From Escherichia coli (GTDB taxonomy: Bacteria > Pseudomonadota > Gammaproteobacteria > Enterobacterales > Enterobacteriaceae), in NCBI RefSeq assembly GCF_048403405.1, contig NZ_CP183129.1: DNA of 64,000 bases. The stretch is one strand, 5' to 3'. The position numbers were made by a program. Of the stretch, positions 18,001-21,000 are shown piece by piece. Within the stretch, counting starts at the first letter, position 1. The number at the start of each line of letters is the position of its first letter.

Positions 18001-21000
18001 CAGCAGGCATGGTTCAATTTTTCCCAGGGGGTGGCATTGCCGGATCCGGGGAAATATTATGGTCGCGGCATCTATGGTGCAGCAGTGAACGGCCATCTTC
18101 CCCTGACAAAGAGCGTGAACGTCAGCGACAGTAAGCTGGAAGGCGTGAAAGTCGATTCTTATGAACTGGGCTGGCGCTTTACCGGTGACAACCTGCGGAC
18201 TCAAATCGCGGCATATTACTCGCTTTCCAATAAGAGCGTGGAAAGGAATAAAGATCTGACCATCAGTGTGAAGGACGACAGGCGCCGTATTTACGGCGTG
18301 GAAGGTGCGGTGGACTACCTGATCCCGGATACTGACTGGAGTACCGGTGTGAACTTCAATGTGCTGAAAACCGAGTCGAAAGTGAACGGTCAATGGCAAA
18401 AATATGACGTGAAGGAATCAAGTCCATCGAAAGCGACAGCTTACATTAACTGGGCGCCGGAACCGTGGAGTCTGCGTGTACAGAGCACCACTTCTTTCGA
18501 CGTAAGCGATGCAGAGGGTAACGATATTAATGGTTACACTACCGTCGATTTTATCAGTAGTTGGCAGCTTCCGGTGGGAACACTCAGCTTCAGCGTTGAG
18601 AACCTCTTCGACCGTGACTATACCACTGTCTGGGGACAGCGTGCACCTCTGTACTACAGCCCGGGTTACGGCCCTGCTTCACTGTACGACTACAAAGGCC
18701 GGGGCCGAACCTTTGGTCTGAACTACTCAGTGCTGTTCTGACGGGGATGCTTTTGCAACAAGGGTATGCTGTAAACAACATGGTCCTTGGTGGCCATGTT
18801 GTTTACAGCCAGTATTGTTTACAGCCAGTATAATATACAGCCTAACAAGATATTCCGTCTCCGGAATGGACTGTTCACCACTGAATAACATTATGTCTGT
18901 TTTATGGATCTTTGACTGAAATTTATCGCATATCCTCATTTCATTGTCCGTCTGAAAACTAACCTTACAAGTAAGCGTCGTCTCAGCACCGTCTGGCAAA
19001 TTCCTGAGAGGATGATCTGCGCCCAATATCCTGAGCCGGAACTTTGCTGCAATGAAGGCCAACGAAAAATGGGGGAGTATGTTATAGAGTACTTGCTACA
19101 GGGTAAAAAGAGGTACCTGTCGCTGGTTCTCCGTTTAGTTTAACCGGGAGATTTTCTCCTGCGCCTGTCATAAAGTCCGGTAATGGAGATTGTTAATACG
19201 ATGGTGCACGATGCATTGCCAGTGCCCGGCCCGGAGGATGCCCCGTAGCTACATACGGATCAGGGTTGGCAATATCGAATGGCAGGCTATAGGCAAAGTT
19301 AAAGCCCCATGGAGTAGCACAAAATATGCCGCACAAAGGAAACGGTCTGAATAACGCAGTGATGGAGAACTTCTTCGGCACACTGCAAAATCGCATCGTG
19401 GTCGATCGCTAATTCGTCGTGAATCACTGAACGATGTTCCATGCGAACAGATATTCGATCATATCGAAATATTAAACATTACCCCTCCCCATATTGGGCA
19501 AAAAAAAACAAAAAACGATCAATTAACGATCAATTAGTATTGATTCACATAATCTCTCATCATTAATGAGAACATTGTCACATATTTACAATATAGAAGT
19601 GTTACTTTTAGCAAGCTGTTAGTAACCAACTGTTACTAATAATTTTAATTCTTAATACTTTGTTCATTCAATAAATGAGTTGAGAGAATATATGAATAAA
19701 ATATACTCCCTTAAATATAGTGCTGCCACTGGCGGACTCATTGCTGTTTCTGAATTAGCGAAAAGAGTTTCTGGTAAAACAAACCGAAAACTTGTAGCAA
19801 CAATGTTGTCTCTGGCTGTTGCAGGTACAGTAAATGCAGCAAATATTGATATATCAAATGTATGGGCGAGAGACTATCTTGATCTTGCACAAAATAAAGG
19901 TATTTTCCAGCCCGGAGCAACAGACGTAACAATCACTTTAAAAAACGGAGATAAATTCTCTTTCCATAATCTCTCAATTCCGGATTTTTCTGGTGCAGCA
20001 GCGAGTGGCGCAGCTACCGCAATAGGAGGTTCTTATAGTGTTACTGTTGCACATAACAAAAAGAACCCTCAGGCCGCAGAAACTCAGGTTTACGCTCAGT
20101 CTTCTTACAAGGTTGTTGACAGAAGAAATTCCAATGATTTTGAGATTCAGAGGTTAAATAAATTTGTTGTGGAAACAGTAGGTGCCACCCCGGCAGAGAC
20201 CAACCCTACAACATATTCTGATGCATTAGAACGCTACGGTATAGTCACTTCTGACGGTTCAAAAAAAATCATAGGTTTTCGTGCTGGCTCTGGAGGAACA
20301 TCATTTATTAATGGTGAATCCAAAATCTCAACAAATTCAGCATATAGCCATGATCTGTTAAGTGCTAGTCTATTTGAGGTCACCCAATGGGACTCATACG
20401 GCATGATGATTTATAAAAATGATAAAACATTTCGTAATCTTGAAATATTCGGAGACAGCGGCTCTGGAGCATACTTATATGATAACAAACTAGAAAAATG
20501 GGTATTAGTCGGAACAACCCATGGTATTGCCAGCGTTAATGGTGACCAACTGACATGGATAACAAAATACAATGATAAACTGGTTAGTAAGTTAAAAGAT
20601 ACCTATAGCCATAAAATAAATCTGAATGGCAATAATGTAACCATTAAAAACACAGATATAACATTACACCAAAACAATGCAGATACCACTGGTACTCAAG
20701 AAAAAATAACTAAAGACAAAGATATTGTGTTCACAAATGGGGGAAATGTCCTGTTTAAGGATAATTTGGATTTTGGTAGCGGTGGTATTATCTTTGACGA
20801 AGGCCATGAATATAACATAAACGGTCAGGGATTTACATTTAAAGGAGCAGGAATTGATATCGGAAAAGAAAGCATTGTAAACTGGAATGCATTGTATTCC
20901 AGTGATGATGTTTTACACAAAATAGGCCCCGGTACTCTGAATGTTCAAAAAAAACAGGGGGCAAATATAAAGATAGGTGAAGGAAATGTTATTCTTAATG

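Follow-up and report, generated by a model that had tools for sequence, protein, structure and literature searches.

The 64,000-nt stretch of Escherichia coli contig NZ_CP183129.1 analysed here (assembly GCF_048403405.1; the whole stretch is referred to as the window) forms part of a uropathogenic-type pathogenicity island, whose content includes a sialic-acid gene cluster, the aerobactin operon iucABCD-iutA, an insertion sequence (IS) remnant, sat, iha and the pap operon. This report concerns a perfect inverted repeat that begins 27 nt past the stop codon of iutA (18739-18741), and the 16-nt tandem duplication that lies against it. The 1.1 kb around the repeat is 100% identical to the chromosome of E. 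coli DA33137, and the annotation of that genome aligns with the window. The features of the locus are as follows.

16546..18741, plus strand: iutA, encoding the ferric aerobactin receptor, last gene of iucABCD-iutA (DA33137 annotation and open reading frame (ORF) list)
18747..18767, plus strand: small predicted stem-loop with 9 pairs (3 G.U), lying after the stop codon and ahead of the main hairpin (centroid fold; weak evidence)
18768..18809, plus strand: main hairpin (perfect arms, fold energy, conservation in four variants)
18799..18842, no strand assigned: 16-nt tandem array, its two perfect units covering 18799-18814 and 18815-18830, then a partial, degenerate one (18831-18842)
18810..19037, plus strand: untranslated stretch with more C than G (composition count), a candidate Rho-loading region
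18852..18867, no strand assigned: minor 6-bp hairpin, ATTCCGTCTCCGGAAT, kept in the chromosomal lineage only
19013..19432, plus strand: IS remnant, a DDE transposase pseudogene (DA33137 annotation), which terminates the native iutA 3' flank in the island

The next gene, sat, begins at 19692, after the IS remnant, and neither the ORF list nor the DA33137 annotation places a gene that converges on the hairpin. A 111-aa ORF on the minus strand that runs across it (18727-19062) matched nothing in Pfam and is regarded as spurious, and in a promoter scan neither the hairpin nor the repeats showed a sigma-70-like site.

The arms of the inverted repeat, GCTGTAAACAACATGG (18768-18783) and CCATGTTGTTTACAGC (18794-18809), are 100% complementary and separated by a 10-nt spacer, so that the perfect 16-bp hairpin described in the initial annotation, and its position after iutA, were both borne out. 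As RNA, the stem gains a U.G and a C-G pair and extends to 18 bp (18768-18785 / 18792-18809), closed by a 6-nt loop (18786-18791). The predicted fold has an energy of -29.1 kcal/mol, compared with -12.0 +/- 2.6 kcal/mol for 200 dinucleotide shuffles (z = -6.5), none of which folded as well. It is the longest perfect inverted repeat with close spacing in the window, and we calculate that chance alone would give about 3e-4 perfect 16-mer inverted repeats (spacer no longer than 20 nt) per window; the observation is far beyond chance. An Rfam search of positions 18400-19800, with E-values up to 10, returned chance matches only, such as mir-30 on the TGTAAACA core of the half-site.

The same hairpin stands after iutA, at an equivalent position, in divergent aerobactin lineages, where four variants were distinguished:

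V1, chromosomal island form: GCTGTAAACAACATGG / CCATGTTGTTTACAGC, -29.1 kcal/mol
V2, ColV-type and Klebsiella virulence plasmids: GCTGATATCAACATGG / CCAAGTTGATATCATA, -19.0 kcal/mol
V3, E. fergusonii p80_40A: 12 perfect pairs and an altered top, -18.4 kcal/mol
V4, O170:H18 plasmid: GCTGATATCAACATGG / CCATGTTGATATCAGC, perfect, -30.2 kcal/mol

Between V1 and the others, three base pairs are altered on both sides of the stem (TAAA/TTTA versus ATAT/ATAT), turning the half-site core from TGTAAACA into TGATATCA with complementarity kept, and the loops also differ. In the main helix 94% of alignment cells are paired, and in the whole tested structure 90%; shifting the 3' partner by 1-3 columns lowers the latter value to 35-56%. 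By inspection, V1 and V2 diverge about as much in the stem as in the flanks, and since the stem nevertheless still pairs, it is the pairing that has been kept and not the sequence. Homology between the chromosomal and plasmid lineages continues weakly beyond the hairpin. The concerted three-pair change neatly illustrates how a stem persists in nature, whether through compensatory substitution or template switching.

iutA orthologues were surveyed at 78 loci in other Enterobacterales and in Pseudomonas, and a strong hairpin proved common at this site. With a cut-off of -12 kcal/mol the region after the stop codon could not be separated from coding controls, and -18 kcal/mol was used instead: a single hairpin at or below this value occurs within 90 nt after the stop codon in 60/78 loci, compared with 9/77 in each of two coding-region controls. 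The orthologue hairpins have a median energy of -20.75 kcal/mol and a median start of +9, and most are GC-rich and unrelated in sequence (e.g., CTTGCCCGGC....GCCGGGCAAG). Textbook hairpin-plus-T-tract terminators are found at the same site in some orthologues, including those of Buttiauxella and Trabulsiella. A hairpin of -12 kcal/mol or lower starts within 40 nt of the stop codon at 72 loci, of which only nine show five or more T in the 8 nt that follow the hairpin and 35 show two or fewer; iutA therefore usually ends with a stem-loop that lacks a U tract. In other Enterobacterales a strong GC-rich hairpin, CTTGCCCGG...CCGGGCAAG, stands where the E. coli / Klebsiella lineage has the weak stem at 18747-18767. 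In the latter, 81.5% of cells are paired and only one-sided changes occur, and the left base of the stem (CGGTATTCCTT in the ColV type) resembles that of Pantoea stewartii. These sequences suggest that the small stem is a decayed ancestral terminal hairpin, which the large hairpin would have replaced.

The hairpin is specific to this locus and is not a dispersed or mobile repeat. An 84-nt query covering the hairpin and the repeat matched 985/5426 complete E. coli genomes, with a median of one place per genome and a maximum of two, and in all six V1-type loci that were opened (DA33137, C9, EBJ003, O104:H4 C227-11, O26:H11 11368 and the plasmid pUTAK-5) the hairpin follows iutA directly. The plasmid-type hairpin region occurs at 1468 places in 1465/72,556 plasmids, and the matches listed are at iutA. 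When the conserved upstream 16-mer CAACAARGGTAYGCTG was used to scan metagenomes, most matches were random; the hairpin was seen only at iutA, in five genuine loci that carry only the two known variants and add no further covariation. Metagenome-assembled contigs labelled as Collinsella sp. and Bacillota also carry iutA with the hairpin, at 100% protein identity to E. coli, and these are most likely the result of binning contamination by E. coli. Like the repetitive extragenic palindromic (REP) sequences and the bacterial interspersed mosaic elements (BIMEs) that contain them, the iutA hairpin is an extragenic palindrome downstream of a gene and could block exonucleases, but it is single-copy and locus-specific, and has no resemblance to the REP consensus. 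Downstream of it, IS insertions have occurred at differing distances, corresponding to window positions of about 18885 in pUTAK-5, 18973 in O26 and 19013 for the remnant in the window, and in all of these copies the hairpin has stayed joined to iutA. An IS3-family end of one type (TGAACCGCCCCGGGTTTCCTGGAGAGTG...) is present at two of the downstream sites, near position 2620 of the pUTAK-5 locus and 2715 of the O26:H11 locus (about 18885 and 18973 in the window).

The initial annotation also noted a tandem repeat beside the hairpin; the repeat is real, but its unit is 16 nt long rather than 15. The unit, TTGTTTACAGCCAGTA, is present in two perfect copies, the first of which shares 11 nt with the 3' end of the right arm, and Tandem Repeats Finder extends the array to 18842 with a period of 16, 2.8 copies and 89% matches. 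In the alignment, the second unit is present in the window, DA33137 and O104:H4, and absent from C9, EBJ003, O26 and pUTAK-5. Copy number thus differs among strains, and in two states only: across the complete E. coli genomes two copies were found in 53 and one copy in about 931, and a synthetic three-copy query detected no three-copy allele in that collection. Eleven of the two-copy genomes are window-like, and 42 resemble 55989 / O104:H4, which have one extra T further downstream compared with the window. Since there are just two states, and the two-copy state is nested in related island types, the pattern fits a single slippage event and not a hypervariable site. The duplication looks like the product of one replication-slippage event on a branch of the chromosomal aerobactin island, and it could serve as a marker of that sub-lineage, including O104:H4 and the 55989 group. 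One specific origin, slippage between two TACAGCC heptamers 16 nt apart, was considered and rejected: it predicts AGTATAATA twice, and the actual junction is AGTATTGTT. The duplication supplies the left arm with a second, 11-nt partner, and the centroid fold still keeps the main hairpin. The sequence that follows the stem is altered as well, from CAGTATAATAT in the single-copy allele to CAGTATTGTT in the duplicated one. Nothing shows that the duplication has a function.

In the single-copy allele there are only two or three T in the 8 nt after the stem, the three nearest bases being CAG, and the sequence upstream of the hairpin, AAGGGTAT, has no A tract. The absence of a U tract, reported in the initial annotation, holds for the single-copy tail, but the duplicated allele that the window itself carries is borderline, with five T in 8 nt; it reads UAUUGUUU after a CAG spacer and barely passes a terminator scan, at permissive settings only. 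Further downstream, the ratio of C to G is 1.2-1.8 in 78-nt windows over 18800-19037, versus 0.7 across the hairpin. A comparable arrangement has been described for Rho-dependent transcripts of E. coli, whose steady-state 3' ends map precisely just downstream of stable stem-loops (Dar & Sorek 2018, PMC6061677). Those stem-loops have no U-rich sequence after them, no A tract upstream and a mild excess of C over G downstream, and the transcripts are trimmed back to them by the exonucleases PNPase and RNase II (PMC6061677). The iutA hairpin is alike in all these respects: it is stable, stands soon after a stop codon, has neither a U-rich tail nor an A tract upstream, is followed by sequence with mildly more C than G, and is not a REP element. 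It is unlike them in that its perfect 18-bp stem is longer than would be expected for the class (an expectation only, as stem lengths were not compared), and in that the aerobactin locus is on an acquired island outside the K-12 data set and is known here from sequence alone.

Because of its position and stability, the pairing kept across lineages, the hairpins found after iutA orthologues, the lack of a U tract combined with the C-over-G downstream region, and its retention despite nearby IS insertions, the hairpin is read as the 3'-terminal stem-loop of the iucABCD-iutA mRNA. That it is the terminal RNA stem-loop of the operon, by whatever mode transcription ends, appears likely; for the fuller account, in which Rho terminates transcription and exonucleases trim the transcript back to a stem lacking a U tract, the sequence evidence tips the balance in favor. 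On that account, RNA polymerase would continue beyond the iutA stop codon, and the untranslated RNA, richer in C than in G, would allow Rho to load and to terminate transcription at scattered downstream positions. The 3'-to-5' exonucleases PNPase and RNase II would then trim the transcript to the base of the 18-bp stem, at about 18809-18812, where the stem would halt them, fixing the mature 3' end and protecting the iutA message. In strains with the 16-nt duplication, the left arm would gain an alternative 11-nt partner and the tail would become slightly more U-rich. The interpretation in the initial annotation is thereby supported in part: its suggestion of an RNA-stabilising stem and its view that this is not a textbook intrinsic terminator fit the evidence best, given the operon-end position, kept pairing, orthologue hairpins and downstream composition. 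In kind, the hairpin is an ordinary, previously unannotated operon-terminal stem-loop of a known type, and little rests on the finding; if confirmed, it would add one more U-less 3' stem-loop to those of Rho-dependent transcripts, on a horizontally acquired virulence island, and provide a transcript end for use in annotating the aerobactin operon. A literature search found no described iutA terminator, stem-loop or 3' untranslated region, and no aerobactin Term-seq data.

Several points weigh against this account. The position, stability, conserved pairing and base composition of the hairpin are observations, and from them we infer the actual 3' end, the dependence on Rho and the trimming by exonucleases. 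The C-over-G enrichment downstream is mild. Both DNA strands fold about equally well, so that the fold energy cannot tell which strand is transcribed. The ColV and E. fergusonii versions are imperfect, with energies near -19 kcal/mol, and a perfect stem is evidently not required. The both-sided changes gave 1/500 in a shuffle control, a figure that is not a probability; they set one lineage apart from the rest and may represent just one or two events, and template switching between the arms could hold the palindrome perfect without selection.

The main rival, a weak and non-canonical intrinsic (Rho-independent) terminator, in which the long hairpin, perhaps with the small flanking hairpins, would cause RNA polymerase to let go of the transcript despite the poor U tract, is a possibility to which we give limited credence. 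A stable hairpin at the end of an operon is what such a terminator would present, the duplicated allele with its CAGTATTGTT tail passes the permissive scan, and true hairpin-plus-T-tract terminators are found here in several orthologues, as in Buttiauxella and Trabulsiella. Clusters of hairpins can reportedly also terminate transcription intrinsically, as one paper argues. Efficient intrinsic termination by E. coli RNA polymerase, however, needs U residues near the stem, and at iutA the U tract is missing in the common allele, where CAG adjoins the stem, and interrupted in the duplicated one. The stem itself (18 bp, 8 G-C pairs, 44-48% GC), though stable, is also longer and more AT-rich than the 5-14 bp, GC-rich stems typical of intrinsic terminators, and there is no A tract upstream.

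It is improbable that the hairpin is a functionless DNA palindrome, arisen by chance or local rearrangement and kept perfect by template switching, with the concerted changes being mutational rather than selected. Such a process has been described: in proteobacteria, template switching is reported to turn imperfect inverted repeats into perfect ones (PMC5941160), and it has been reported to create and maintain RNA hairpins (bioRxiv 10.1101/2021.04.15.439925). V1 and V4 differ at several clustered nucleotides, the change in one arm being mirrored in the other, and the adjacent slippage duplication marks the site as prone to replication errors. This explanation leaves unaccounted for the unrelated strong hairpins found at the same site in most orthologues but in few of the coding controls. 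Template switching would, moreover, also be consistent with a functional hairpin, and the proposal is more about how the palindrome is maintained than about whether it has a function.

More specific roles fare worse. It is doubtful in the extreme that the hairpin exerts specific post-transcriptional control, either of the level of IutA relative to the aerobactin synthesis enzymes or of read-through into sat, with the duplication in the 55989 / O104:H4 and window lineages acting as an expression variant that alters termination efficiency or 3'-end stability. Less probable still is an RNase III target, by analogy with the retroregulation of phage lambda at sib, in which cleavage of the 18-bp stem would expose the iutA message to decay from its 3' end. 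Its sole support is the unusually long, bulge-free stem, and 18 bp is about as short as RNase III substrates get; the versions from ColV plasmids and E. fergusonii contain internal mismatches and shorter helices.

The least probable proposals are that a small mobile element left its scar or one of its ends here, that the palindrome is an attC-like or REP-like recombination site, or that it is a DNA operator bound by a protein; these find some encouragement in the mosaic, IS-rich character of the island and in a GTAT on both sides of the hairpin (the right one offset by 2 nt), but are opposed by its occurrence about once per genome, after iutA in all loci inspected, by the lack of any Rfam match, by perfect arms in which inspection showed no attC core sites (RYYYAAC, GTTRRRY), and, for an operator, by half-sites that changed in concert with pairing kept. 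Two of the ideas raised in the initial annotation lose ground here. A mobile-element scar marking the edge of the aerobactin module finds no support, given this distribution and the homology that continues, if weakly, past the hairpin; a protein-binding site is disfavored by the concerted changes and by the length of the arms. In the genome-wide copy search the motif proved to be unique, which counts against a mobile element and has no bearing on the other readings.

The surroundings of the operon also speak to the supposed module edge. Directly after iutA, Klebsiella-type plasmids encode a DUF1471 protein, a TetR regulator and a DUF417 protein. The window has this trio of genes 15 kb off and inverted (33709-35145, minus strand), with 75% identity to the Klebsiella-type virulence plasmid, and a 71-nt piece of the plasmid spacer downstream of iutA is found at 28516-28586, just upstream of iha, with 87% identity. 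The plasmid neighbors on the 3' side of iutA are thus scattered in the window, indicating that the sat, IS and iha modules have divided the original flank; the hairpin therefore does not mark where the aerobactin module ends.

A second hairpin of similar placement occurs after iha (31195-31239). It consists of 15-bp arms, AATACGTTGCCACTG / CAGTGGCAACGTATT, with a 15-nt spacer, starts 29 nt past the iha stop codon, and the 66-nt stretch that contains it folds at -27.5 kcal/mol. As at iutA, a perfect stem without a U tract stands soon after the stop codon of a TonB-dependent siderophore receptor gene, but the two sequences are unrelated, and the iha hairpin has a larger loop (15 nt) and no tandem duplication beside it. 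Other inverted repeats with close spacing after gene ends in the window are found at 40587-40613, following a pap major pilin-like gene (ends 40562), at 24258-24287, following a hypothetical gene (ends 24207), and at 6467-6507, following the N-acetylneuraminate epimerase gene (ends 6463); these are probably ordinary terminator or stability hairpins.

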